This document shows, one piece after another, positions 11,724-25,792 of a DNA stretch of 64,000 nucleotides; the first letter of the stretch is position 1, and each line of letters starts with the position of its first letter. The DNA comes from a virus (lineage: Duplodnaviria; Caudoviricetes). The translations under genes and the position numbers were made by a program. The stretch lies in IMG/VR virus record IMGVR_UViG_3300035696_000004, positions 96,001 through 160,000 of that record. The stretch is one strand, 5' to 3'. The notes beneath the pieces are model-generated. The model was not told where the DNA came from and did no database searches. It saw nothing but the letters and a program-made list of their open reading frames with translations.

Positions 11724-14066
11724 TTAGCGCGCGAGCGCTGTCTTGTTGGGCATCTCAGCAAACGCCATGTAGATATAGCTATCGCCACTCTTGTTTGTAC
11801 CGGCATTGGCGTCACCGAGTAGGAAACCGTTGGACAGGAAATAATCCGTTCCATAGGCTGTCTGCTCAACTGCCGCTGAATCCGCATACAGTGAGTTGGT
11901 TACCGGGTTGACCGGATTCCTAACCGCATCCAACATGACCCAATCGGTGGTGCCGGTGGTGATGTCTTTGATCATGACGAACTTGGGACGGAAACCGCAG
12001 TAGACGAAATTACCCGTCGTCAACCCATTCCCGGTGTACGTACCAAACTTCGAGAAGTTTGGAATCTCTGAAAAGAGATACGCTACATATGTTGCGCCAG
12101 ACGCATTGACGTTGCTGGCACCCGACGTCCCTGTCGTGAACCCAAAGGTCGTTGACGTAGGAGAGGTGCTGATAGCGCCGTTTGCTGTGGCGGCAATCGG
12201 CAATTGTGCAGCCGGCTGATCCAGCTGGATGTAATATCCAGAGGTCAATCCCTTGTGGTAGACAAACCAATCGGTCGTCCCCGCAGAGCGACACTTCACG
12301 ATAATCATTGCCGGAACAACACCCAACGAATGCGCAATCGTTCGAGTCGTCGTTCCGTCACCCGTGTAAGTCTGGATGTCGATACCGGCCTTCGGGTCTT
12401 TCTTCCAGAACCAATCCACGTACGTCCGACCGCTGACGCCCAGATTGACATCCATCGTCACGCCATCCGAATTGAATGACGTGACCGAGTTGGCAGTGGA
12501 TTCTACAGTTTGGGTGTCGCTGTGCAACGTAGCGTTGACACCTCGGATGATGTCCATCAGGTTGTTACTATCCGAGGTATTCCGACACTTAGACCACACC
12601 ATGCCCGGAGCAAACAACATCCCCGAGATTGTCGTCGATGCACCCGTACCTGATCGAGCATCGATATCGAAATACTGCTTGGGGTTTTGAATAACGGGGG
12701 CGTTGAGATTCGAAGAGCACAGCGTCGTTGCACCCGACGGTTTGGTACGAATAAACGCGCGCTGGCCAAAGTTGATTGACACTTTATCGGTCGTCGCGTA
12801 GCATTCAACAAACGCACCCCATTGACGACCGTCGACAGCGAGTGTCGCAATCGTCACCCATGTCGTCCCGTCAACAGTATAACTCAGTTGATTCAACGTC
12901 CCATCAAACATGAATCCGATCGTGGTCCCGGTCGTATACGTCAAATGACCCGATGCGCCTGTGGTACTTTCGACGTACCAGTAGCCTGTCTGACTGACGG
13001 CGACAACACCGGCTCCCAGACTGGATGAGAACGACCCTGAGAGCGCAGCGATACCCAAGTTGATTTGAGTACCGAGGTTAGCAATCGTCACTTCCCAGTA
13101 GTACTTGCCTGCCCCAAACGCCATGTTTGCAGGTGCCATCCCGTACGCTCCGTTGCCGACAGCGTAGGTGTTGCCGACCGACAACGTGAGGGCGGTACCG
13201 AGTTGACCTTGCGGGTTCAGTGTCGGGAAGTTGTTTGTCGGGGTATCCAGCTGAGGATCGTACGTCGGGTCAGTGACCACACTAAACCCGGATGCGGTCC
13301 ACGTGTTTCCGAGACCGCTCGAATCTGTACCAAGCGCGGCTAAAGAACCTACCGAGCTGAAGTTCAGATACGCACCATTTGTTCCATACGTGCCCGTGTA
13401 CTTCTTCGGTAGCCACGCTCCCGATACAGGATCCGTATAGCCAAACGAAGAAGGTGTCAACGCTTGGCCGTCGACTTTGACGACTTCGGCGAAGAGCATA
13501 TTGGAATACTGGAGGTACGTCCCCGTCTGACCACTTCGGCCTATGAATTCAGGATACGTCGTAGTGTTGACGCTGGTTGTTGCATTTTGGGCATATGTTG
13601 CGGTAAACGTCATTGAGACAGCTTGACCATTCACCCACGCGAGCACACGGTTGGCGGCTGTGGCGTTGGTCGTATCGACAGCGAGCAAGACATGATACCA
13701 CGACGCTGTGTCGATATACACCCCTGCTGAAGTCCCTAAACAAGGGTTGCTACCAGGGATACCATCAAGGTAGTAGAGCTTCCCAGCGCTATTGATACGG
13801 AAACCTGTGTAGTTGTTGCCCGCCGTGTCGCCAGCTTCAAATAAAACTTCTCCTGTGGCGCCAATAGGATCGCTACGCTTGATCCAGGCGGACCAGGTCC
13901 AGGTCTTCGAATTCGAAGCGGAGGAATTGGTGCGCGTCAGATAGCTGGATTGTGCCGCCCGAGCACGCAAGGAGTTGGCGATCTGATACCCGACGCTTCC
14001 GCCGCCCGCACCACCATTGATAAAGAACGGAGCGAGGCGACGTTTTCGTTTTGTTGCATTGAGCAT
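11724..14066 (-). CDS. receptor-binding/tail-fibre protein with LamG/ConA-like, SPRY-like and two C-terminal beta modules
   Basis: KTWTWSAWIKR, WYHVLLAVDTT, GKYYWEV, YTGDG/YTGNG...PKFVMIK repeats; start 14066 after AAGGGG. Confidence 0.75.
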   Translation of the reverse strand: MLNATKRKRRLAPFFINGGAGGGSVGYQIANSLRARAAQSSYLTRTNSSASNSKTWTWSAWIKRSDPIGATGEVLFEAGDTAGNNYTGFRINSAGKLYYLDGIPGSNPCLGTSAGVYIDTASWYHVLLAVDTTNATAANRVLAWVNGQAVSMTFTATYAQNATTSVNTTTYPEFIGRSGQTGTYLQYSNMLFAEVVKVDGQALTPSSFGYTDPVSGAWLPKKYTGTYGTNGAYLNFSSVGSLAALGTDSSGLGNTWTASGFSVVTDPTYDPQLDTPTNNFPTLNPQGQLGTALTLSVGNTYAVGNGAYGMAPANMAFGAGKYYWEVTIANLGTQINLGIAALSGSFSSSLGAGVVAVSQTGYWYVESTTGASGHLTYTTGTTIGFMFDGTLNQLSYTVDGTTWVTIATLAVDGRQWGAFVECYATTDKVSINFGQRAFIRTKPSGATTLCSSNLNAPVIQNPKQYFDIDARSGTGASTTISGMLFAPGMVWSKCRNTSDSNNLMDIIRGVNATLHSDTQTVESTANSVTSFNSDGVTMDVNLGVSGRTYVDWFWKKDPKAGIDIQTYTGDGTTTRTIAHSLGVVPAMIIVKCRSAGTTDWFVYHKGLTSGYYIQLDQPAAQLPIAATANGAISTSPTSTTFGFTTGTSGASNVNASGATYVAYLFSEIPNFSKFGTYTGNGLTTGNFVYCGFRPKFVMIKDITTGTTDWVMLDAVRNPVNPVTNSLYADSAAVEQTAYGTDYFLSNGFLLGDANAGTNKSGDSYIYMAFAEMPNKTALAR

Positions 14067-14083: not shown

Positions 14084-14473
14084 TTACGAAATGTTGTTGG
14101 TGTAACCTTCGCAATACAGAATGTTGCTCGCACCGCCGACGAAGTTAAATACGCAGACTCCCGACAAATTCGTGGGTACCGTCCCATTCGGGAACTTGAA
14201 GCCAGCCGATGCCCAGCTAGGCGTGAAGCCTGCTGTCGTGAGGATGAGCTTGTACATCGCGCCAGCCAAGATATTGGTCGGTGCGGCAAACGCTCTGGCA
14301 GCGGTCAACGTGCAGCTGACGACCTGTCCATTTGCCGTTCCGTCCCAGGCAATGGACGCTGCATCGGTGAGGGTCCCGGACAACGGGACTTGTTGTGCAG
14401 TGAACGTTTCTTGGGTTCCCAAGTTAGCATTCGTTGCATCTTTTTTTGCCAGGGCAAGTGTGGCAGAAGTCAT
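14084..14473 (-). CDS. small tail-fibre connector protein
   Basis: 129 aa; LTDAASIAWD...FKFPNGTVP module seen in fibre proteins; MTSATLALAK leader. Confidence 0.65.
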   Translation of the reverse strand: MTSATLALAKKDATNANLGTQETFTAQQVPLSGTLTDAASIAWDGTANGQVVSCTLTAARAFAAPTNILAGAMYKLILTTAGFTPSWASAGFKFPNGTVPTNLSGVCVFNFVGGASNILYCEGYTNNIS

Positions 14474-14492
14474 GGTGAAGATCCTTTAGATG

Positions 14493-14951
14493 TTACTTGG
14501 TGCGTTTGCCAGAGAAATACGTGTACTGTTGCGCGTTGGTGAGGCCGTCAGCGACAGCGCTGTAATACATGAGTTGGGCGTAATCACCCGCAGCGAGTTT
14601 TACAGGACCCGACGTTCCGCAAAGATTAAAGTTCGCAGAGCCGGAAGCCTCGATGGTTTCTTGCATTCGGAGTCGAAATACCCCGTTGACATACAGGTCG
14701 ATTGCTCGGTTACCTGGGCTAGCTGTCGAACCATGTACCCCGGCAGCAAATTCATACGTCCCGGCCTGTTGAGCTGTGAACCGCATGGTGCTCGTGCTGA
14801 ATTCAGTCAGATCATCAAACAAGACGGATTGAAAGTTGACGGCGGTGTACGTGGCCGCTGAGATAGATTGTGAAACAGATTGGTACACTGAAAAGTTACT
14901 CATCGCAGACATCTTTGCAATGAGGTTTGCCATGGTGGCGGCTTGAGTCAT
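14493..14951 (-). CDS. free-standing C1q/TNF-like tip domain, paralog 1
   Basis: FTAQQAGTYEF, LYVNG, VKLAAGDYAQL, YFSG: C1q-like beta sandwich; paralogous to the long-fibre C-terminus. Confidence 0.75.
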   Translation of the reverse strand: MTQAATMANLIAKMSAMSNFSVYQSVSQSISAATYTAVNFQSVLFDDLTEFSTSTMRFTAQQAGTYEFAAGVHGSTASPGNRAIDLYVNGVFRLRMQETIEASGSANFNLCGTSGPVKLAAGDYAQLMYYSAVADGLTNAQQYTYFSGKRTK

Positions 14952-14962
14952 TTCGAGCGTCC

Positions 14963-15418
14963 TTATTTTGTTCGTTGGCCAGAAAAATAGGTTATTGTGG
15001 AACCGGCTGTACTGGTGTCCGCTATGCCAGAAAAATAATACAGCTGTACATAGTCACCGGCATTCAGCTTCACAGGACCAGAGGAACCAGCAAAGGTAGC
15101 GCCACCAGCGGTGCTGCCAGTTTCTTGCATCCGGACGCGTTCTACACCATTGACGAACAGATACAAAATCTTTGCAGGACCACTCGTCGTCGTTCCGTGC
15201 ACTCCACCGAAGAATACGTACGTACCAGCTTGTTGGGCAGTAAACTTCGCCGCTGTACCAAGGGTACATTCACCCAGATCGTCGAATAAGGCTGCTTGGC
15301 AATTTAACGCCGCAGCTGTCGTGGCGGCGAACGACTGACTCGCATTCTGGTATAGATAGAAGTTCGACATTGTCGCCTTTGCTGCTAGCGAATACGCCAT
15401 TTGTGCAGCTTGCGTCAT
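14963..15418 (-). CDS. free-standing C1q/TNF-like tip domain, paralog 2
   Basis: Start 15418 (MTQAAQM) after AAGGA; FTAQQAGTYVF, LFVNG, VKLNAGDYVQL. Confidence 0.75.
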   Translation of the reverse strand: MTQAAQMAYSLAAKATMSNFYLYQNASQSFAATTAAALNCQAALFDDLGECTLGTAAKFTAQQAGTYVFFGGVHGTTTSGPAKILYLFVNGVERVRMQETGSTAGGATFAGSSGPVKLNAGDYVQLYYFSGIADTSTAGSTITYFSGQRTK

Positions 15419-15429
15419 TATTGTATCCT

Positions 15430-15891
15430 TTAATTTCCAATCGCCCACCAGTTAAAGCCCTGGACATTTGTCGATGCAATCGACATGATGGCCGCTATTT
15501 TCATTCCTGTTTTTGACTGTGATTCAGTATCAAAAACAAAAGGGTACGCGAGGATACTTACCCCGTTCAAAGATACGCCAGACCAAACGCATGCCGTTGG
15601 GAAAGCGAGTGGGAAGGTTATCACGGAATACGAAAACGTATTGGCCGTAAAGCTGGAGATCGATGTGTATCCCCACTGCAAAATCAACCCGCCTAGGCAC
15701 GAAGGCAGTTTGATGTACCCGTTGGCTCCGATACTGATCGAGAACCCTAAAGCCGTCATGATCACGGCCATTGCATTCCGAATCCAACTCGTGCTGGCAG
15801 GGTTTGCACTGTTATCAGCAAAAGAGGAATCATTGGTAGCGGTTTTGGTGGATTCGCTCCCATGTTGACCGTTTTGTGTTGCTTGTGTCAT
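15430..15891 (-). CDS. free-standing tail-fibre C-terminal (gp53-like/lectin-like) domain protein
   Basis: NGYIKLPSCLGGLILQWG, ITFPLAFPTAC, WWAIGN end. Confidence 0.75.
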   Translation of the reverse strand: MTQATQNGQHGSESTKTATNDSSFADNSANPASTSWIRNAMAVIMTALGFSISIGANGYIKLPSCLGGLILQWGYTSISSFTANTFSYSVITFPLAFPTACVWSGVSLNGVSILAYPFVFDTESQSKTGMKIAAIMSIASTNVQGFNWWAIGN

Positions 15892-15912
15892 GACGTAATA
15901 TCCTGTTGTGGG

Positions 15913-15941
15913 ACGGGGGAGGGATTTTTACCCTCCCCCGT
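15913..15941. other. GC-rich hairpin without a U-tract between the long fibre and the tip genes
   Basis: CGGGGGAGGG/CCCTCCCCCG 10-bp stem. Confidence 0.55.
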
Positions 15942-15950
15942 TGTTACATT

Positions 15951-18900
15951 TTACTTGACGCGATACCCACCAAAGAACGTATAGATACTCGACGCAATCA
16001 AGGTGTCAGCGACAGCCGGGTTGTAATACAACTGGACGTAGTCACCTGCGTTCAGCTTGATCGGACCCGACGTGGTTCCGAGCGGCAAGTTACCGTTGCT
16101 GTTGGAGGACGCCAAATACACTTTCAACACGCCATTGACATAGATCGCCAATGCGCGGGTGCCGGCCGTGGTGGACGAACCCAACACAGCGCCAGTGAAC
16201 ACATACGTACCTGCATTCACCGCGGTGAACTTGCCAGCCGTGCCCAAGGTGAACTCACCCAGATCATCAAACGTCGCTGTCTGGAAGTTCAGTGCATTCC
16301 AAGCACCCGCCGTAATCGTCTGGGCACTCGATTGATATACCGAGAAGTTCGACATCGCCACTTTCGTGACCATACTCCCTTCGGCAATATACCACGCACT
16401 CACGCCATCACTCTTAAGAATAGCCGTGTCGCTGTTCCCAAAGGTGAGCACCGAATACTTCGTGGCACCCGAATAGATACCGTCCGTACCCGCCGGAACA
16501 ACTGTCGCCCCAGCAATCATGCTCACAAATTGAATGGCGTAACCAGCCGGGAACGTCGATGCTGACGGCAACGTCGATTGCGTAGCCGTCTTCAGCAACA
16601 GCATCTGACCCATGACACTCGTCGTCAACACAGCCACAGCACTGACAGATGTGATGCCATTAGCACCCATTTGGCTTTGCTGCATCTGCACCAGTGTCGG
16701 GCAGTTGGCGATGTTGTACGGCAGGTACGCTACGACTTGAACCAGCGCCCCAGCAGGGATCAGGCTCGGCGTCGTCATGGTGACAGTCAAACCGTCCGTT
16801 GCCGTAAAGTCCGGTAAACCGTACTTAACACCGTTGACGAACACGTCCACCAGACCCGGGATATAACTGAACCCGGATTGCGAGAACGAAGCCTGCGAAG
16901 CCGTTGCCGTGAACTCAGTCGTAACACGCAGCAGCGTAGCATTCGTACTGGAGTAGCCGTACCACGCCACAAAGCTGACGTTTTCACCACCTGCAAACGT
17001 ACCGGACGGGAAGACGACCGTGCTACCGTTCGTTGCCGTAAAGTCCGATGCTGGCAACTTACGGCCTTGAACAAACGCTTGGAGCAAGTTCGGTGCGTAG
17101 TTCAGGTTGAACGTCGTTTGGTTTGCCGTTGCGGTAAACTCGTACGGCACGTAGCAGGCCGATTGACCCACGACACCATTGATGTTCGTTCCGTCACCAT
17201 ATACCACCATGCTACCGTTGTTCGGCAGGGCAATGCCCGTACCCGTAGCGCCTTGGGCCGTAACAGCGTAGCCACCCGTCGTTTGGTTCTCAACGATCCA
17301 GTTCCCTACCAGCGGGAACACAATCGTCGTAGCAGCCGTTGTGACACCCGTCAACTTGATCGTTGCGTTGGCTAGTTGTGCAGCCGACAGTGCCAAACTC
17401 GTGTAGCCCGTCACCGATACCGATACGACACCGTTGAACAACTGCGTCACGGCGTTGGCAATTTGCGTCAACGCACTGTTTGCAGAAGTCTGCGCGGCCG
17501 CCGCATTCGTGATACCGGTTTGGGCATCCGTCTCTGCGGTGTTGGCTTTGGTTTGAGCCGTGGCAGCATTGGTAATCGCCGTCTGAGCATCGGATTCAGC
17601 TTGAGAAGCCGCGGCAGCTGTTGCAGGAGTGAATCCCAGAGCAGTCGTCACATCCGAACTGGTCAACGTAACCGCACCGATACGACCATTGAACGAACCC
17701 ACTTCCGTAGATTGTCCATCGATCTTATCCCACGTCGTGCCATCGAAGGTCACGAAGTCGTTGACACTCCAGGACGAGACGCCATCCAGAGTCGTCGTAC
17801 CTGCTACGCTCACCTTGTAGAAATACCCCTTCGTACCCGTGCCGCTCGCAAGAGTCGGAGTGTTGGTAGAAGCATTCCACGTACCTTGGTAGTTCTCCGC
17901 ACCCAAGACCGAAGCAGGCAGTTGAGACGTCGGGATCTTGCCATTACTGTCGAGCGTAGCCACACCACCTGCCACCCCCTCCAGCGCAGTACTGATAGGA
18001 GTAAAGCCCAGCGCCGCGGTAACATCAGCAGACGCGAGTGCACGACCTGCCGTAGCGCGACCTTTAGCATCCACCGTCACGACGCCATACGTACCTGCCG
18101 CAATACCAGATGCCGCCAACGTGGCGGTCAGACTTCCTGCGGCGACGGTCACGTCCCCCGTCAAACCAGGGAATTCAGCCGGCAACAGATAGCCGTTCGA
18201 ATCCAGTTCTGCAACACCCGACTTCGCACCCAGGAGTGCTGCATTGATCGGCGTGAAACCCAGGGCCGACTCAATAGCCGCAGCCGTCGCTGCTACAGGG
18301 TTATATCCCAATGCAACAACAATGGCACCGACCGTCGCTTGGAGCGGCGTATAGCCGAGCGCACCACTGACATCGGTCGAACTCAATGCAGTACCCGCCG
18401 ACACACGACCCTTGGCATCAACCGTTACCTTGGTGTAGGTTCCGGCCGCGACACCCGTGTTGGACAACGTCAGGGCAAGTGCAGTCGAACCCGAACCCGT
18501 CACATCACCGGTTACCGTGATGGTTTGGTTTCCGGAAATATAACCATTCGGGTTTGTTGCATTATAAGGTGTGAAGCCAAGAGCGGCTTCCAGAGCAGCA
18601 GCGGTATTGGCAACCGGGGTGTAACCCAGAACAGCCGCAATCGCTGCCGACGTGTTAGCCAGAGGGGTGAAGCCCAACGCTGACACAACATCCGCCGAAG
18701 TCAGGCTGATCGCACCCGTGCGTCCATTGAACGAAAGCAACTCGTTAGCAATACCGTCGATCTTGTCGTAGGTCGTGCCGTTGAAGATGATCGTGTCGCC
18801 TACATTCCAGGTCGAAATTCCATCGACAGTGGTCGAACCAGCGGTGCTGACTTTGTAATAGTAGCCTTTCGTACCGACACCGCTAGCCAAAGCTGGCGTA

Positions 18901-20183
18901 TTGGTAGAGGCATTCCAGACACCTTGATAGACAACAGCACCCAGCAAGGACGACGGGATCTGGGACGACAACAGGCGGCCATCCGTACCCAGTTGAGCAA
19001 TGCCGTTAGCAGCACCAACGATAGCCGAATTCACCGGAACAAACCCGAGGGCTGTTTCGATGCTGCTTTGCGTCATCGCTGCAATAACGGATGCCGAAAT
19101 CGTCGACAGTTTGGAGTCGATTTGTTCCGTGCTGTAGACATCCAGATTGGCACGGGCCGTAACAAAGTTGGCCAGATCCGACAGGTTGCTGGCTTTAGCC
19201 AACGCAGCGGAGGCCGCATTTGCCAAGGCTTCATTGGCGGTGGTCTGCGCAGCAGCGGCAGCGGCGATAGCCGCCTGTGCATCAGACTCTGCCTGATTGG
19301 CAGTCGTTTGCGCGGAAGACGCACTGGTTTGGGCAGCCGTTGCCAACGAGTTGGCCGTAGCGGCATTCCGAATACCCGTTTGAGCATCCGTTTCCGCTTG
19401 GTTAGCAGTTGATTGTGCAGCCGTTGCAGCGGACTGAGCAGTCGTCGCGGTCGTTTGTGCCTGGTTGGCTGTCGATTGTGCTGCCAGAGCAGCACCATCT
19501 GCCGTAGCTGCATTCGCCAGTGCTTGTTGCGCATCGCTTTCAGCGGTGTTGGCTTTGGTCTGGGCAGCTGCTGCTGCCGTAATGGCAGTTTGAGCGTCTT
19601 GCTCTGCCTGATTGGCTACGCCCGTTGTGGCACTCAGCGTCGTACTCAGCGACTGGAGATCCGTTTCCTTCGCATAAACAGGGAACGGATTGACTTCTGC
19701 TTGCAGTTCAGCGATCTGATCCCCCACATACGCTTGGGTCGCATACAGAGAGGCGCTGCCATCGACCACAGTCACGCTGGTCGAGTTGCTTTCAGCGACG
19801 ATCATCTGGATCGGCAGCGGGTTCGGGGCGCCGTTCGTTGCCACTTCTTTCAGAGTCGCCGGGACGTTGGCAATGACCAAGAGCGTACCAGACGAATCCA
19901 CAATCCCTGCTTCGCGAATCGTCCAGCCCCCGATCGTATTCGGGATGACGATATTGGCCAGCAGCTGATTGGTATTTTTGGGGTCTTTGTAGACCGACCC
20001 GTATTGAGAGAACGGGAAGGCGTGGACCTGGTTGACGAGTGCGGTGTCGGATTCTTCAGGTGTGGTGGCAGCGCCGTTACCGTCCCCAACCACCATCGCG
20101 TGAAAGTCGAGCGCAGCACCACCAGCATCGGCTGCTGCTTTAGCAGCAAGACCGGCGGTCGTCCAGATTGTACCGTAAGTCAT
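15951..20183 (-). CDS. long tail fibre (P2 gpH-type N-terminal anchor, coiled coil, repeats, C1q-like tip)
   Basis: Start probably 20183; TTAGLAAKAAA...VGDGNG...GGWTIREAGI N-terminus; ALGFTP repeats; C1q-like C-terminus. Confidence 0.88.
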   Translation of the reverse strand: MTYGTIWTTAGLAAKAAADAGGAALDFHAMVVGDGNGAATTPEESDTALVNQVHAFPFSQYGSVYKDPKNTNQLLANIVIPNTIGGWTIREAGIVDSSGTLLVIANVPATLKEVATNGAPNPLPIQMIVAESNSTSVTVVDGSASLYATQAYVGDQIAELQAEVNPFPVYAKETDLQSLSTTLSATTGVANQAEQDAQTAITAAAAAQTKANTAESDAQQALANAATADGAALAAQSTANQAQTTATTAQSAATAAQSTANQAETDAQTGIRNAATANSLATAAQTSASSAQTTANQAESDAQAAIAAAAAAQTTANEALANAASAALAKASNLSDLANFVTARANLDVYSTEQIDSKLSTISASVIAAMTQSSIETALGFVPVNSAIVGAANGIAQLGTDGRLLSSQIPSSLLGAVVYQGVWNASTNTPALASGVGTKGYYYKVSTAGSTTVDGISTWNVGDTIIFNGTTYDKIDGIANELLSFNGRTGAISLTSADVVSALGFTPLANTSAAIAAVLGYTPVANTAAALEAALGFTPYNATNPNGYISGNQTITVTGDVTGSGSTALALTLSNTGVAAGTYTKVTVDAKGRVSAGTALSSTDVSGALGYTPLQATVGAIVVALGYNPVAATAAAIESALGFTPINAALLGAKSGVAELDSNGYLLPAEFPGLTGDVTVAAGSLTATLAASGIAAGTYGVVTVDAKGRATAGRALASADVTAALGFTPISTALEGVAGGVATLDSNGKIPTSQLPASVLGAENYQGTWNASTNTPTLASGTGTKGYFYKVSVAGTTTLDGVSSWSVNDFVTFDGTTWDKIDGQSTEVGSFNGRIGAVTLTSSDVTTALGFTPATAAAASQAESDAQTAITNAATAQTKANTAETDAQTGITNAAAAQTSANSALTQIANAVTQLFNGVVSVSVTGYTSLALSAAQLANATIKLTGVTTAATTIVFPLVGNWIVENQTTGGYAVTAQGATGTGIALPNNGSMVVYGDGTNINGVVGQSACYVPYEFTATANQTTFNLNYAPNLLQAFVQGRKLPASDFTATNGSTVVFPSGTFAGGENVSFVAWYGYSSTNATLLRVTTEFTATASQASFSQSGFSYIPGLVDVFVNGVKYGLPDFTATDGLTVTMTTPSLIPAGALVQVVAYLPYNIANCPTLVQMQQSQMGANGITSVSAVAVLTTSVMGQMLLLKTATQSTLPSASTFPAGYAIQFVSMIAGATVVPAGTDGIYSGATKYSVLTFGNSDTAILKSDGVSAWYIAEGSMVTKVAMSNFSVYQSSAQTITAGAWNALNFQTATFDDLGEFTLGTAGKFTAVNAGTYVFTGAVLGSSTTAGTRALAIYVNGVLKVYLASSNSNGNLPLGTTSGPIKLNAGDYVQLYYNPAVADTLIASSIYTFFGGYRVK

Positions 20184-20284: not shown

Positions 20285-20336
20285 CAGCCATAAAGGAGTA
20301 CCCTCACCCGGGCGGTGAGGGTACTCCGACTATGTC
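20285..20336 (-). terminator. hairpin terminator followed by TTTATGGCTG
   Basis: 14-bp stem GGAGTACCCTCACC/GGTGAGGGTACTCC. Confidence 0.75.
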
Positions 20337-23242
20337 CTAGTCTCAATGTTCATGTTACCGGCTGTTGCCAGCCGAGTCATGGTTCCTGCGGATACATACC
20401 ACAGTTTTGCGACTTTGTGAAGACCGAAAAATGTCTTCTTGCTCAGGACCGACGTGACCTGTCCGTGGTTTGCTGCTGCTTGCAATGCCATGTACGACGG
20501 GGTTTGTTCAAGCGAACCATCCACCGAGAATACACTGAAGTTGTCCGTACCCGCTGTGCTGTTCGAGAAGGACAGGGAACCGGATCCGTTGAACTCAGTA
20601 CCGATTCCGTACATCTCCATCTCGGCTTCAACAGCAGGTGCAGCAACCAGAGCCGCTGTGGTAGCAGCACTCGTAATCCCTTTACGGAACTCACGAGTCA
20701 GTCCTGCCTCACGACCATCCAGATAGTTCCGCTCACCTCCACAGAACGACTTCACGCTGTAGCGTGTTCCGCTGTTATACAGCAGCGGGAAGAGATAGGC
20801 CTGATTACCGGACCACGTGGCAAACTCAGACAACAATGCAGCATTCGCATATTTCCTGAGCTGCACAGCAGCTGTCGTGTATTTCACATACGCCCAGACG
20901 ACATCAGCATTGTATCCCGATACCGCCGACAGGTCGCCAAACGACAAGCTGTTGGTCGATGTGGTCGTGGTCAATTTACCCGTACCGTCAATCACCAGTT
21001 TGTTGTTGATGTAAACGAAGTAGTCCGATCCTTTCCCCGTCACGTAAATGACGTTCTCGGCTGATCTGAGGTCCACCTGATAGATTGCATCCGGTGTTCC
21101 TGCCAGTGCTCCGCCTGTTGCAATGAACCCTTCCTGCATCGAAATGATCAATGCTTTCGTGCCATCCAAAATCTGAATAGCGGCTTCACCGGACAACGTA
21201 GACGCACCCGAACTCGATTCAATCCGGGCTTTGGCAACCACGGACCATCCATTCGCATTGCTGAACCCAGCAGACGCTTTGGTGTAATACCCGGTATCGG
21301 TCGTAGCGTATGCGCCCGCAGACTGGAACAACCGGCTATTGAGAATCGACATGACATTCGATTCACCTGCCGTCCCTGTAAACGTATACCCGAGCGTAGA
21401 AGGCAACGCCGTAAAGAGCGACGACACCGTCCAGGCAATGGATTCCGGAAGACCGCAACCTAGCGTTGCTTGAGCGAGGTCTCTCCAACCCTCCGACATC
21501 GTGAACGTCTGCGCCGTCAACGACTTCGTTGTCGTTCCACCCGTGTTGGAACTGGTCAGAGTGATGAAGTCTGCACCGTCGCCCACAACCCGATACGTCA
21601 CGCCCACGTCTGTCGCGAGGCCGGCGATTGCTGTTCCGGACAAGCTGTACAACGTACCATCTCCACGATAGAGATAGAGCGTCAATACACCAGTCGCAGA
21701 TACAAAGCCCACGAGCCGGTCGTGATCGACACCGTATGCGATATCGAACAAGATCTCGCTAGCGGATGCTGTCGGTACAGTCCCACGCCAAATGATCGAG
21801 CCCTGCTTCCCGTCAAAGAAGTTCTTGGCGGGTTGTTGGAGACCTTTAGATTGGTTGATCGGAGACCCTGTCAGGAATTTCAACTGTTGGTCAAACAAAC
21901 CACTCGACTGAAGGAACGTGTTTGCCGAAGGGGACTCAACCATGAAACAGGTCGAGTAACCCGGGGTCGAAGTCCACGTCGGGCTCGACGTCCCCAAGAT
22001 GTAATTCCCAAGGGGATACTTCGAACGCGTTGTTCCTTTAAGAACAGGATAGTTCGTCGAATTGGTCGTGCCGGTCGTCGCCACGACGTAGTATTGCGTA
22101 CCCGCTGTCAATGCTGCTGGCGTTGTCAACGGAAGTCTATACCACGCACCGTAAGCCTTACTCGTGATGCGCAGCAGATTCATGGTCGCCGTAGCACCAC
22201 TGATCGCAGCACTCGGAAGACCCGAACCATTGTCGGTATAGATAGAGAAGGTAACCGTTTGGTTAGCCGAACCCACCTTTGCCAGTTTGACCCAGACGTA
22301 GCCGTAGGTTCCCGTCTCACCAACTTTGAAACCCGATGCGACATTGACATTCGACGCTGCTGAACCAATCGGAAACGAAGTATCATCCTGAATCTGGAGC
22401 GTAGCCGGTTCAAAACGAATCAGGTTGTCAGTCTGATTATCGACCATCTCGTGACCCAGATAGGCGCCGCCCCATTGATGATTGAACGTATCCGGAATCC
22501 ACCCAGCACGAACAATATCTCGCCACTTTCCATCAACGGATGGATAGAGCAAGTTCGTCAGGAAAGCCGACGACCCAAAAGGCAGCCCAGCACCTGTTTG
22601 CAGGGACGCTACGGCCGCCTGAGCGGCTTTCGCCTGTGTGATGCCAGATTGTGCATCTGATTCAGCTTGGTTCGCTGTAGACTGCGCTGCGGCTGCGGCA
22701 GCGATACCCGTTTGAGCATCGCTTTCAGCGGTGTTGGCTTTGGTCTGCGCAGCACTCGCTGTATTGCTGATCGAAGCGAGCTGATCCTGGACGTACGCTT
22801 GGCTTGCCATGACATCGGTTTGATCGCTGATGATCGATACGGCAGATGTCGACGTTACAGCAATGGCAGCACGCACTACAAAGGTCCCTACAGATCCATC
22901 CGCCGAGACTGTCTTGGTTTGGGCAGGGTAGTTACCCACCGCCAAGATGTCTCCCGATCCATCCAGGATAGCAAATTCACGAATGGTGAATCCGCCTACC
23001 GATGCTGGGAGATCCAGCTCCACCAGAATCTGTCCGGCTGTATTGGGATCAGGATAGCAGTTGGTAACCGCTGCACTGTAAACTTTATTTTTCAGACCAT
23101 TGACAATGGTCGTTGGATTGACAAAGGCACCACTACCATCGCCGAGTTGAAATGTGACGAAATCAACCGCTGTTTTGTTGGCAATAGCAGTGGCGAGGAT
23201 AGAAGCCCCCGCGGGCGTCAGCAGAGTGTAATACGTGCTCAT
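20330..23242 (-). CDS. second tail fibre (P2 gpH-type N-terminal anchor, LamG-like domains)
   Basis: YYTLLTPAG...GDGSG...GGFTIREFAI N-terminus; shared AESDAQ coiled coil; beta-rich distal part. Confidence 0.85.
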   Translation of the reverse strand: MSTYYTLLTPAGASILATAIANKTAVDFVTFQLGDGSGAFVNPTTIVNGLKNKVYSAAVTNCYPDPNTAGQILVELDLPASVGGFTIREFAILDGSGDILAVGNYPAQTKTVSADGSVGTFVVRAAIAVTSTSAVSIISDQTDVMASQAYVQDQLASISNTASAAQTKANTAESDAQTGIAAAAAAQSTANQAESDAQSGITQAKAAQAAVASLQTGAGLPFGSSAFLTNLLYPSVDGKWRDIVRAGWIPDTFNHQWGGAYLGHEMVDNQTDNLIRFEPATLQIQDDTSFPIGSAASNVNVASGFKVGETGTYGYVWVKLAKVGSANQTVTFSIYTDNGSGLPSAAISGATATMNLLRITSKAYGAWYRLPLTTPAALTAGTQYYVVATTGTTNSTNYPVLKGTTRSKYPLGNYILGTSSPTWTSTPGYSTCFMVESPSANTFLQSSGLFDQQLKFLTGSPINQSKGLQQPAKNFFDGKQGSIIWRGTVPTASASEILFDIAYGVDHDRLVGFVSATGVLTLYLYRGDGTLYSLSGTAIAGLATDVGVTYRVVGDGADFITLTSSNTGGTTTKSLTAQTFTMSEGWRDLAQATLGCGLPESIAWTVSSLFTALPSTLGYTFTGTAGESNVMSILNSRLFQSAGAYATTDTGYYTKASAGFSNANGWSVVAKARIESSSGASTLSGEAAIQILDGTKALIISMQEGFIATGGALAGTPDAIYQVDLRSAENVIYVTGKGSDYFVYINNKLVIDGTGKLTTTTSTNSLSFGDLSAVSGYNADVVWAYVKYTTAAVQLRKYANAALLSEFATWSGNQAYLFPLLYNSGTRYSVKSFCGGERNYLDGREAGLTREFRKGITSAATTAALVAAPAVEAEMEMYGIGTEFNGSGSLSFSNSTAGTDNFSVFSVDGSLEQTPSYMALQAAANHGQVTSVLSKKTFFGLHKVAKLWYVSAGTMTRLATAGNMNIETRT

Positions 23243-23272: not shown

Positions 23273-23857
23273 TTACGTGCTCGACGAAGGATAAACCGTG
23301 ATGCTACTATTGACCGTGACAGACGAACCAATATAGACAGACCCGCCAATAGACAGGCTGGTTCCTGGTACCGCGTTGACCCAACGAACGGTTAGAGGTC
23401 CTTGGAAGAGCAAACTGGTGCTCGCCATCTGTACCGTCAATGAGCTACTGAAAATACCGGCGATGTAATTATCCGATACTGTTGGAAAGACGCCATCAAC
23501 GAAATCATCCGCTGTCAAGTTCAAGCCATACTGGCTATTGAACTGAGCGACCACATCCGAGAATGACACGCTGCTAGCTGTTGTCTCGAAATAGATCTCT
23601 GGGATATCCGTATCGATGTCCAGGATATCGTGCAGATTGATCCGCGAATATTTGACCGAAATACTCCCCGAATACCCGCTACCTGCTTTGGCAGATAACG
23701 TAATCGCCGTGTTTTCACCTCCGTTCGTACTCGGATCTATCGCTACAGGAATCCCCGGCGTCACCAGATCCGCCGAGATGAAGACGGGTTCGGTATTCGC
23801 CGACGCAATCAAGTCCATCAGGTTTTCAAGACCTGTTTTGTTGGCTTCGAGTTTCAT
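23273..23857 (-). CDS. phiKZ-type virion tail/baseplate paralog 1 with C-terminal extension
   Basis: LMDLIASAN, ENTAITLSAKAGSGYSGSISVKYSRI, YGLNLTADD shared with three neighbours. Confidence 0.75.
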   Translation of the reverse strand: MKLEANKTGLENLMDLIASANTEPVFISADLVTPGIPVAIDPSTNGGENTAITLSAKAGSGYSGSISVKYSRINLHDILDIDTDIPEIYFETTASSVSFSDVVAQFNSQYGLNLTADDFVDGVFPTVSDNYIAGIFSSSLTVQMASTSLLFQGPLTVRWVNAVPGTSLSIGGSVYIGSSVTVNSSITVYPSSST

Positions 23858-23886
23858 TTTAGTCTCGTGTCAAGTTAATGGGTCAT

Positions 23887-24507
23887 TTAGCTAGCCGGCC
23901 CCACAGTGATGGATTGACTGATTGTCGTTGCAGCACCTTGGTAGGTCTCTGCATCCAACTCTATAGAAGTCGGTGTTGTCAAACCACCCAAGTTCACTGT
24001 CAGCACCACCTGATCCAGAGGAACGAGGTCATTCTGAATCGTGATCGGGAGTTGACCTAGCCAGACGAGTGCCGTCGACGATGCTGTCAAACCCATGGAC
24101 TCGGTCCCATTCGGGAGGAGTGGGTTTAGATTAATCGTGGCATCGACAATATCGTCCTGCGTAATCTGAAGACCATATCGAGTGTTAATCTCTGTCAAGA
24201 GACCACTCAAGGTGGTCGATCCATTCCGGCTAAACACTGTCGAGAGTGCGCCAGGAATGGAGGACATTTCAATTCTGTTGTACTTCACGGTGACGCTATC
24301 GCTGTAACCAGAACCTGCAATAGCGGTCAGTGAAACGGACGTGTTACCAGCATCGTCACCAACTAAAACAACAGGGCCGCCGATATCAACCTGTTCTGTT
24401 GTCAATGGTGACAGGAGTGAGCCATTTTGAGTATTGGTGTCATTGACCAAGTCTAGCAAAATCTGCTGGCTGGGCTGATTATAATTGCTCACAAAAGAAG
24501 ACGCCAT
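23887..24507 (-). CDS. phiKZ-type virion tail/baseplate paralog 2 with C-terminal extension
   Basis: LLDLVNDTN, GNTSVSLTAIAGSGYSDSVTVKYNRI, INTRYGLQIT. Confidence 0.75.
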   Translation of the reverse strand: MASSFVSNYNQPSQQILLDLVNDTNTQNGSLLSPLTTEQVDIGGPVVLVGDDAGNTSVSLTAIAGSGYSDSVTVKYNRIEMSSIPGALSTVFSRNGSTTLSGLLTEINTRYGLQITQDDIVDATINLNPLLPNGTESMGLTASSTALVWLGQLPITIQNDLVPLDQVVLTVNLGGLTTPTSIELDAETYQGAATTISQSITVGPAS

Positions 24508-24571
24508 GGGGAGATCTCAGGGTGGAATAATCTAAAGAACTGACCATAGGATTCGTTGTAAAAACCACCGT

Positions 24572-24610
24572 GGCGGCATAAAAAACCACAGGACCGAAGT
24601 CCCGTGGTTT
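24572..24610 (-). terminator. cUUCGg hairpin terminator followed by TTTTATGCCGCC
   Basis: Stem-loop immediately after the 24628 stop. Confidence 0.8.
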
Positions 24611-24627
24611 CGGAGCTGAGGCCGCGA

Positions 24628-25167
24628 TTAGGCGGTCGGAGCGGTGTACACCAGGCCCGGCAGGTTCAGCGTGGTGATCACGCTGGTCAGCGGTACGTCG
24701 TTGTTGTCGAGGGTCAGGGTCAGCGAACCTTCCCAGACGAGCGACGTGGACTTGGCGGTGATGGTGAACGGCAGCGAGTCGTGCGGCTGGTTCGGGAACA
24801 CCGGCAGGGCGGCGTCTTCGTAGTCGTCGGCGGTCAGGTTGATGCCGTAGGTCGCGTTGATTTCCGGGATGAGGTCGGAGATCTTGGTCGCGGAACCTTG
24901 GGTGTAGACGGTCGACTTGGCGCCGGGGATGGAGCTCATCGGCACGCGGTTGTAGTTCAGGCTGACGTTGCCACTGTAGCCCGAGCCAGCGGCCGCGGTC
25001 ATGGTGATGTTGGTGTCGCCATTGGCGTTGCCGGCTTGGGCAACCGGTGCGCCGAAGGTAACGAGTTCCGGCGTCAGCGCGGTGACCAGCGAGGCCGAGT
25101 TGGCCGAGTTGATCAGGTCGATGAGGATCTGTGCCGGTGCCTTGGTGAAATCGGGAGTGTATGCCAT
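24628..25167 (-). CDS. phiKZ-type virion tail/baseplate paralog 3 (highly expressed codon usage)
   Basis: LIDLINSAN, GDTNITMTAAAGSGYSGNVSLNYNRV, INATYGINLT. Confidence 0.8.
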   Translation of the reverse strand: MAYTPDFTKAPAQILIDLINSANSASLVTALTPELVTFGAPVAQAGNANGDTNITMTAAAGSGYSGNVSLNYNRVPMSSIPGAKSTVYTQGSATKISDLIPEINATYGINLTADDYEDAALPVFPNQPHDSLPFTITAKSTSLVWEGSLTLTLDNNDVPLTSVITTLNLPGLVYTAPTA

Positions 25168-25246
25168 TGCTTTGGTTTCCTGATAGAGGATGATGGGACA
25201 AAAATGCGGTGTGGACCAGAGGATTACTCCCCCCGCATACTATTAC

Positions 25247-25792
25247 TCAATCCCCGGAAGCAGTTCCAGGGAAGGTCAATCCTAACAACACCAGATTCCT
25301 CGTCAACACGACTTCTTTGAGAGGAATCGGATCACCTGGCCACCGTGGGTATAGGGTTATGCTACCCAGCCACCCCAGCGAGGTGGCTTCGTTGATGGTC
25401 AGGGTGTAGGAATCTTCAACTGTCGTAATCGTCTTATCGACGATTTCATCAGTGGTCAGATTCAGCCCTAAGGCTGTATTGATTCGATCAATGACACTGG
25501 ACAACGTGAACGGAACAACAGGGAGAACCACTTCCTTAATGATGCCGTCAGGTAAGTTATTCAGAATACTGATGTTCAGTCGTTCATAATACACCGTCTC
25601 CGGGAAGGCGACTGCATCACCCTCTAGCGGCTGGACGGTGACGGCAGTGTTTCGCCCCTCGGCATCGGAATACGACTGAGGTGAGCCAAATGCAAAATCA
25701 ACTCCGACAACAAACTGTTTCTGATTGTCTGTGTTGATCATTGAGACCAGTCGTTCGGCACTGGTTCCACTGTACGGGGTTAAATTAGGCAT
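25247..25792 (-). CDS. phiKZ-type virion tail/baseplate paralog 4
   Basis: LVSMINTDN, GRNTAVTV, YYERL, INTALGLNLT. Confidence 0.75.
   Translation of the reverse strand: MPNLTPYSGTSAERLVSMINTDNQKQFVVGVDFAFGSPQSYSDAEGRNTAVTVQPLEGDAVAFPETVYYERLNISILNNLPDGIIKEVVLPVVPFTLSSVIDRINTALGLNLTTDEIVDKTITTVEDSYTLTINEATSLGWLGSITLYPRWPGDPIPLKEVVLTRNLVLLGLTFPGTASGD

Follow-up and report, generated by a model that had tools for sequence, protein, structure and literature searches.

What role is played by a row of very small genes, each encoding a bare fibre tip behind a short common N-terminal start, when such a row stands directly downstream of a long tail fibre gene? The question is raised by the fibre operon of an uncultivated tailed phage, IMG/VR record IMGVR_UViG_3300035696_000004, a complete record of 219,772 bp with direct terminal repeats, of which bases 96001-160000, a stretch of 64,000 nucleotides, form the window analysed here. 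Four tandem genes in this window, and a fifth elsewhere in the genome, encode proteins that open with a shared leader peptide, MT(Q/S)A, and continue into domains that end the fibres of other phages. The reading developed below, to which we give an even chance, is that the leader stands in for a virion anchor and docks alternative tips.

A row of tip genes behind the long fibre

The virion operon lies on the minus strand and runs from three DUF7941 paralogues through a 970-aa fibre and a 1410-aa fibre to the four small genes, P0006 and a ParB-like nuclease. The long fibre, the tip domain in which it ends and the five small genes are the following, with positions counted in the window unless stated otherwise.

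15951..20183, minus strand: long tail fibre P0001/P0008, 1410 aa from Met15 of the open reading frame (ORF), with a P2 gpH-type N-terminus, Ala/Gln-rich coiled coils, repeated modules and a C1q-like tip
15951..16373, minus strand: C1q/TNF-like tip of the long fibre itself, either the parent of P0003 and P0004 or their sibling (BLASTP, alignment)
15430-15891, minus strand: tip gene A, P0002, 153 aa, with a six-residue leader, a hydrophilic linker and a gp53-like C-terminal fibre knob
14963-15418, minus strand: tip gene B, P0003, 151 aa from its ATG, with a leader helix and a C1q/TNF-like head
14493-14951, minus strand: tip gene C, P0004, 152 aa, with a leader and a C1q-like head
14084-14473, minus strand: tip gene D, P0005, 129 aa, with a 15-residue leader and a domain that elsewhere ends fibre-like proteins upstream of DUF7483 genes
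G000:C1:24565-24897, minus strand, outside the window and 86 kb away: fifth leader gene, P0007, 110 aa, with a leader and a fibre-end domain

A first-pass annotation, made from the letters and their reading frames, had described four small genes with an MT(Q/S)A start downstream of the fibre; the ORFs are found where it placed them, with the starts that it quoted, namely MTQATQ in P0002, MTQAAQ in P0003, MTQAAT in P0004 and MTSATL in P0005. Its count holds within the window and is extended by P0007 outside it. The gene structures are established: each of the four tandem tip genes carries an AGGA/GGGGA Shine-Dalgarno sequence 6-9 nt before its ATG, and in four of the five leader genes the leader methionine is the first start codon of the frame.

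The bodies behind the leaders fall into four mutually unrelated families (hhalign probability <1% between types). P0002 contains a PF21882 domain at residues 67-153 (E 2.5e-12; 47.6 bits against a gathering score of 24.9), is related to the solved tips of AP22 gp53 (PDB 4MTM, E 3.7e-5) and the R1 pyocin fibre (6CXB, E 0.003), and matches the C-terminal ends of tail-fibre PHROGs. P0003 and P0004 share the C1q-like type, P0005 represents a third family, and residues 23-103 of P0007 align with the C-terminal ~80 positions of phrog_18794 (E 1.4e-9), phrog_18834 and phrog_26525 (annotated tail fiber). All five bodies are C-terminal end domains of longer fibre-like proteins in other phages, and the initial description of the small genes as free-standing tip domains is borne out by the match of every body to fibre C-terminal ends. 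A likeness of P0007 to a cryptic C1q domain, suggested by eye, fails on profile comparison (hhalign probability 0.6%); its single-sequence AlphaFold2 model is unusable, with a predicted local distance difference test score (pLDDT) of 41, and the atlas yielded unnamed viral clusters with weak fibre-repeat leads only. A word-index protein search returned no relatives of P0004, and with P0007 it retrieved P0007 itself only.

Old copies of the fibre's own tip

Two of the small proteins had been recognised as copies of the last ~140 aa of the fibre, diverged at all codon positions, and this paralogy is established. The end of the fibre is 51% identical to P0003 (E 3e-41) and 50% identical to P0004 (E 2e-39) by BLASTP, while P0003 and P0004 are 56% identical to each other (E 2e-52), with the core motifs kept across the three paralogues. 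Identity among the three by codon position is 0.62-0.65, 0.67-0.69 and 0.30-0.39 for first, second and third positions, respectively. The proportion of synonymous differences (pS) is 0.71-0.90 and thus saturated, that of nonsynonymous differences (pN) is low at 0.31-0.35, and the ratio of nonsynonymous to synonymous rates (dN/dS) is ~0.2 or lower; P0003 and P0004 are therefore old duplicates under purifying selection, neither recent copies nor decaying fragments. Together with the intact frames and the ribosome-binding site on every gene, the saturation of synonymous sites indicates that the genes are maintained.

These figures bear on the possibility that the array consists of relics of tip replacement, displaced tips left downstream whose shared start would be an inherited translation-initiation cassette with no role at the protein level. 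Phage genomes commonly contain displaced fibre ends, and the two copies paralogous to the current tip do lie directly downstream of the fibre. Such an origin is nonetheless improbable, since genes with intact frames, ribosome-binding sites throughout and so low a dN/dS have been kept for long, since the leader peptide is conserved despite codon drift while the upstream DNA is not, and since the fifth member lies 86 kb away; in P0005, moreover, the leader has replaced an anchor, which is not what truncation at a fibre junction would leave.

Tandem copies in the same orientation behind an expressed tip could also be a silent or semi-silent store of cassettes for the swapping of fibre tips by homologous recombination. 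The longest DNA shared between the fibre tip and the copies, however, is 32-41 nt at ~75% identity, a length insufficient for efficient exchange, every copy comes with a start and ribosome-binding site of its own, and homology to the fibre tip is confined to two of the five, which makes a store of this kind extremely improbable. As far as sequence can tell, programmed switching is excluded: the genome holds no match to RVT_1, Resolvase or Phage_integrase, as the earlier claim of an array working with neither recombinase nor reverse transcriptase had it, and there is one gene orientation and no significant repeat.

The fold of the copies is equally well established. The C1q family PF00386 is matched by P0004 with 28.8 bits, above the cut-off of 23.7, and by the fibre tip (23.0) and P0003 (18.8) just below it. 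With an alignment of 52 sequences as input, AlphaFold2 models P0003 at a pLDDT of 95.7 as a helix at residues 3-15 followed by a beta sandwich; the model superposes on the phi812 spike knob and on the Caprin-2, C1QL1-3, C1q (including PDB 1PK6) and EDA heads; against the solved heads, Z is 16-18.6 and the root-mean-square deviation 2.0-2.2 Å over 125-135 residues (Foldseek, VIA). All structural matches of P0003 start at residue 13-17, and its leader helix therefore lies outside the C1q fold. It is at the place where this N-terminal helix would lie that a stalk joins C1q-type trimers.

Exactly three paralogues of a trimer-forming fold, with conserved core motifs, also bring to mind heterotrimeric heads, in which the fibre tip, P0003 and P0004 would co-assemble like the A, B and C chains of complement C1q and present mixed binding surfaces. 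Heterotrimeric C1q heads do exist, PDB 1PK6 being among the matches of the model. Co-assembly of this kind is, however, very improbable here, as it gives no account of the leader on the gp53-like, P0005-type and P0007-type domains, and as a homotrimeric fibre shaft, which is to be expected, would bring three identical tips together.

An exhaustive profile search with the P0003/P0004 C1q type found 5,779 relatives at E<=1e-3, in which the domain is mostly the C-terminal domain of a longer protein, with up to ten C1q-like copies in some relatives. Lone free-standing C1q-tip genes occur within the structural modules of many phages, as single genes on short contigs and not as arrays. Among HMMER hits in public metagenomes, P0009-P0011 and P0017, which are 1100-2100 aa long, carry 6-10 C1q-like domains in tandem; because the termini of the C1q fold lie side by side, sets of three tandem domains might form single-chain pseudo-trimers. 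These tandem proteins were considered as unsplit ancestors of the array and rejected, their linkers looking nothing like the leader.

The leader as a conserved peptide

The element common to the small genes is best illustrated by the leader of P0003.

15371..15418, minus strand: P0003 leader, residues 1-16, of which residues 1-12 are 10/12 identical to the P0007 leader

The statistics of the leader were computed on a crude set of 244 genes covering the whole 219,772-bp genome. MT[QS]A starts were seen five times where 0.58 were expected, an expectation inflated by the inclusion of the five leader genes in the frequencies, and MTQA starts four times where 0.18 were expected; with the two paralogues counted once, P is ~0.003. 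A similarity scan of N-termini across the genome gave scores of >=50 for the five leader genes and 23 for the next best. The shared start is thus more than chance, and exactly five genes in the 220-kb genome bear the leader, whose consensus MT(Q/S)A(A/T) extends to a helix of ~13 residues in most of them.

What has been conserved is apparent from the comparison of P0003 with P0007, in which similarity is confined to residues 1-12 (BLAST) while the bodies are unrelated. Across the 12 codons of this stretch there are six synonymous against two nonsynonymous differences; across all five leaders, the third base varies in Thr and Ala codons, and the DNA 5' of the ATG has only the Shine-Dalgarno sequence in common. 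Since codons drift while the peptide is kept, and since the upstream DNA is unconserved, what has been conserved is the peptide, rather than a repeat in the DNA, a site of recombination or an RNA element. That the leader is modular and under selection is in this way established, and, judged from these alignments, the leader has been held constant while the remainder of the proteins diverged or was exchanged. A derivation of the leaders from the coiled coils of the fibre was considered and dismissed, local alignment scores falling within those of composition-matched shuffles.

Searches for the leader outside this genome were negative. A strict back-translated leader pattern had no matches in viral contigs, and a relaxed pattern gave 14 metagenome matches, all of them unrelated (FlgK-like, primase-like and dehydrogenase proteins), where by a rough estimate ~7 would be expected by chance. 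Across 80 IMG/VR loci with DUF7483 genes, no small leader-bearing tip gene was found; three MT[QS]A starts in these loci belong to unrelated ORFs that have no Shine-Dalgarno sequence.

A leader in the place of an anchor: P0005 and its partner

The clearest view of what the leader has displaced comes from P0005, which lies directly upstream of a large virion protein gene.

11724..14066, minus strand: P0006, 780 aa, SPRY and DUF7483 virion protein (PF24299 E 2.8e-79, SPRY E 2.4e-5)

P0006 matches the virion structural protein family phrog_19943 (E 6.5e-138) and has 186 relatives in IMG/VR. The homologues of P0005 designated P0157 and P0158, which are 64-66% identical to it and come from an Oryzomicrobium terrae prophage (CP022579.1, 1443681-1464139) and a Logan contig, have no leader, and the first ~20 residues of P0005 are not shared by its homologues. 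In both the prophage and the contig, the P0005 homologue stands immediately 5' of a SPRY and DUF7483 gene, and in at least 22 of the 80 IMG/VR loci recovered with P0006, a P0005-type domain is located by tblastn directly 5' of the DUF7483 gene. In these loci the domain is the C-terminus of proteins that measure 135-810 aa and begin like conventional fibres, their anchors including the T7 tail-fibre domain PF03906 (E 6e-19), Mtd_N (E 8e-14) and others. As homologues carry anchors where P0005 carries the leader, P0005 is a fibre end whose virion anchor the leader has replaced.

The conserved adjacency suggests that P0005 holds or cooperates with P0006, and the earlier assignment of P0005 as a tip of the long fibre gives way to one as conserved partner of this DUF7483 protein. 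The pairing of a P0005-type fibre protein with a SPRY/DUF7483 gene recurs in many uncultivated phages and has the look of a fibre or adaptor system of two components, as yet undescribed, which its occurrence suggests to be widespread.

Proposed docking of alternative tips

One peptide-level leader on four unrelated knob types, in genes of the fibre operon and at the position where other phages have anchor and shaft, is best explained as an attachment element. Beyond what is observed, we infer that the small proteins form trimers, are incorporated into the virion and dock there by means of the leader. In the mechanism proposed, the leader would take the place of shaft and virion anchor on each knob, three leader helices would probably be bundled into a stub beneath each trimeric knob, and this stub would plug the knob into a common socket on the particle; the virion could then display several alternative knobs with no DNA rearrangement, and P0005 would probably serve as an adaptor bringing in the large SPRY/DUF7483 protein P0006. 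Among the proteins of the operon, a candidate for holding the small tips is the third DUF7941 paralogue, because only two fibres lie downstream of the three paralogues. The suggestion of the first-pass annotation that the leader is a docking peptide on the fibre is upheld in part: the leader is a separate, modular element acting at the protein level (10/12 identical residues on unrelated bodies), while for attachment to the long fibre in particular the sequence searches detected neither a branching domain nor, beyond composition, a likeness of the leaders to any fibre segment.

Several points weigh against docking. The presence of the five small proteins in the virion is itself something that we infer. 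A T4gp10-type domain (PF07880) has no match in the genome at E<=1 in a Pfam sequence search, a BppU-type holder (PF10651) has none at E<=0.1, neither the two fibres nor P0006 have solved relatives detectable by sequence in the PDB, and the leaders match no segment of the fibres beyond a common Ala/Gln/Thr composition. The part common to all five leaders amounts to 4-5 residues, P0002 shares only six leader residues, which no hydrophobic helix follows, and the helical amphipathicity of the P0005 and P0007 leaders is modest. No relatives carrying the leader were present in the collections searched. P0007, finally, belongs to an operon other than the fibre operon, with a putative membrane protein and a lipoprotein-like protein on its 5' side and an RNase H-like gene on its 3' side, ~3 kb from baseplate and virion-structural genes.

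Some of these points would be accommodated if the small proteins were soluble knobs outside the virion, the leader being a trimerising neck or folding element and the proteins acting free in the cell or after lysis, for instance as receptor masks or glycan binders. Sequence searches turned up no docking partner, C1q-type heads are known to trimerise on their own, lone C1q-tip genes stand free in many phages, and P0007 lies outside the fibre operon, all of which would fit. Against this, four of the genes are embedded in the fibre operon and flanked by genes for two virion proteins, other phages carry the same domains in covalent linkage to virion anchors, and a head that trimerises by itself would have no need of one neck common to four unrelated folds. 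Reading of the N-termini revealed no signal peptide in the five small proteins, so that extracellular action would be possible only after lysis. We regard soluble knobs as unlikely.

The position of the genes also recalls assembly factors that chaperone or template the folding of the fibre tip. P2- and Mu-type phages encode Tfa downstream of the fibre gene, so that the array occupies the classic chaperone position behind a P2-type fibre, and no Caudo_TAP (PF02413) gene is present in the genome. Pfam and PHROG scans of the five proteins, however, found no chaperone family, the small proteins are themselves tip domains with folds of the receptor-binding type, and four different factors behind a single fibre would be required, which leaves a role in assembly very improbable indeed.

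Genome setting and other features of the fibre genes

The phage can be placed by a conserved head-to-tail protein of 441 aa, which matches phiKZ-like jumbo phages only, the nearest matches being Burkholderia phage FLC9 (45% identity) and Ralstonia phages RP12 and RP31 (38%). In FLC9, the nearest cultured relative (45% identity in the protein used as anchor), the syntenic region has no tip array and contains a different paralogous family. IMG/VR was scanned with P0004, P0002 and the 441-aa structural protein, none of which brought up a relative, and the 10-kb region gave no match against phage records by megablast. The case is accordingly limited to an uncultivated phage with no close relatives in public data. 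A hint of a betaproteobacterial host is given by the closest homologue of P0005 (66%), which resides in a betaproteobacterial prophage, and by the nearest cultured phage relatives, which infect Burkholderia and Ralstonia.

The remaining features of note in the operon are a second fibre and a hairpin.

20330..23242, minus strand: second P2-type fibre, 970 aa (PF12571 E 1.3e-34), context and possible docking platform
15912..15942, minus strand: GC-rich hairpin right after the long-fibre stop codon, with a 12-bp stem and no U-tract or TATG tail

The fibres are preceded, at window 23273-25792, by the DUF7941 paralogues (194, 206 and 181 aa) and a 240-aa protein that belongs to no family. The long fibre, whose database entry is the 1410-aa form, matches PF12571 at residues 16-157 (E 5e-34), C1q PF00386 at residues 1294-1421 (E 9.5e-5) and tail-fibre PHROGs. 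Two tandem beta-rich modules of ~78 aa occupy window 16725-17150 (residues ~1025-1167), with a DNA repeat spacing of 234 nt, and two further modules of ~70 aa, at residues ~430-500 and ~775-845, are built around a conserved W-N-A-S-T-N-T-P motif; such repeated modules might provide the shaft with additional domains for binding or docking.

The hairpin behind the long fibre has a predicted folding energy of -26.7 kcal/mol (z -3.7), and none of 200 shuffles was equally stable. As it has neither a U-tract nor a TATG tail, the tip genes are probably read through from the fibre transcript; the hairpin is possibly a partial terminator or attenuator before them, and perhaps keeps their expression below the level of the fibre. 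Between the two fibre genes, at window 20295-20327, lies a perfect 14-bp hairpin followed directly by TTTATG (-33.4 kcal/mol, z -6.4).

Comparison with known systems

Should the leader be a docking tag, the direct fusion of a helix of roughly twelve residues to a bare knob, repeated five times with four unrelated knob types in one genome, would be the most stripped-down design with multiple receptor-binding proteins (RBPs) so far. It would show how the host recognition of a jumbo phage can be broadened by taking up nothing but fibre tips from other phages, would extend the logic of anchor, branch and conserved peptide from Klebsiella podo- and myophages to phiKZ-like phages, and would provide a very small tag by which binding domains could be mounted on particles.

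The exosporium of Bacillus provides a parallel from outside the phages, in which a leader common to BclA, with its C1q-like head, and F-Anchor docks in the inter-subunit clefts of the TNF-like ExsF trimer (PMC12357932, PDB 9H3D). Here, too, one N-terminal leader is found on proteins with different C-terminal heads, one of them C1q-like, and ExsF and BclA-type heads are among the matches of the P0003 model (Z 14.5-15.4). The exosporium leader, on the other hand, belongs to a spore-surface system and is extended, proline-rich and non-helical, with a collagen stalk behind it. A docking of the phage leaders on the fibre's own C1q tip is thus an analogy only. Taken to its end, it would make of the leader a universal plug, the three leader helices of each small trimer docking on the terminal C1q trimer of the long fibre in the manner of ExsF, or on some other single socket, so that one fibre end would carry up to five unrelated knobs, including the P0006 adaptor. 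We judge this stronger form distinctly unlikely; were it true, binding domains of any kind could be loaded onto a jumbo-phage virion through one minimal and portable tag, and C1q heads would act both as receptor binders and as docking platforms.

In marine podophages, free-standing C1q-domain genes beside the fibre are considered a variable receptor-binding protein (PMC3909814). These differ from the present array in being single genes with longer conserved N-termini, and in having no array, no paralogy to the fibre tip and no leader shared with unrelated tips.

Lactococcal phages show how small an RBP can be. BppL of TP901-1 and Tuc2009, with 173 aa, is a trimer whose residues 2-30 are held by BppU (PMC4742702). 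The likeness lies in the size and in a short N-terminal stem followed by a head, related phages placing different head folds on similar stems. BppL differs in having a beta-helical neck and in being the sole RBP type; there is no sequence relationship, and no BppU-like protein is found here.

A close parallel is with the branched systems of Klebsiella phages, where a short conserved N-terminal peptide attaches RBPs that have no anchor of their own. In KP32, deletion of a conserved 29-residue peptide from RBP2 abolishes incorporation into the virion, and the peptide can carry a foreign enzymatic domain (PMC13352976); such docking peptides are group-specific and go down to seven residues, the RBPs of K1E, K1-5 and SP6 carrying peptides of seven or 11 residues (PMC6872550). 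The array resembles the KP32/K11/KP34, Menlow and PhiK64-1 groups, together with K1E/K1-5/SP6, in its short, group-specific N-terminal peptide on anchor-less RBPs. In Klebsiella-type systems, likewise, the genes of these RBPs directly follow that of the anchored RBP, and their peptides, of 7-29 residues, are transferable to unrelated specificity domains; within a single jumbo phage, the principle can apply to several RBPs. There, however, the cargo is a large depolymerase tailspike, in contrast to the bare knob of 90-135 residues found here, and docking takes place on either a T4gp10-like branching domain or an adaptor, whereas no T4gp10-like domain was found in this genome. The present case further differs in concerning a phiKZ-like phage with P2-type fibres and one leader on five genes, and in that docking is here a proposed role.

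Lone C1q-tip genes, jumbo phages with multiple RBPs and N-terminal docking peptides are thus already known. What is new is the reduction to a leader and a bare knob, the occurrence of one leader on five genes of four families, and the presence of two fibre-tip paralogues among the five. The array is most likely a compact variant of the docking-peptide principle known from Klebsiella and lactococcal phages.

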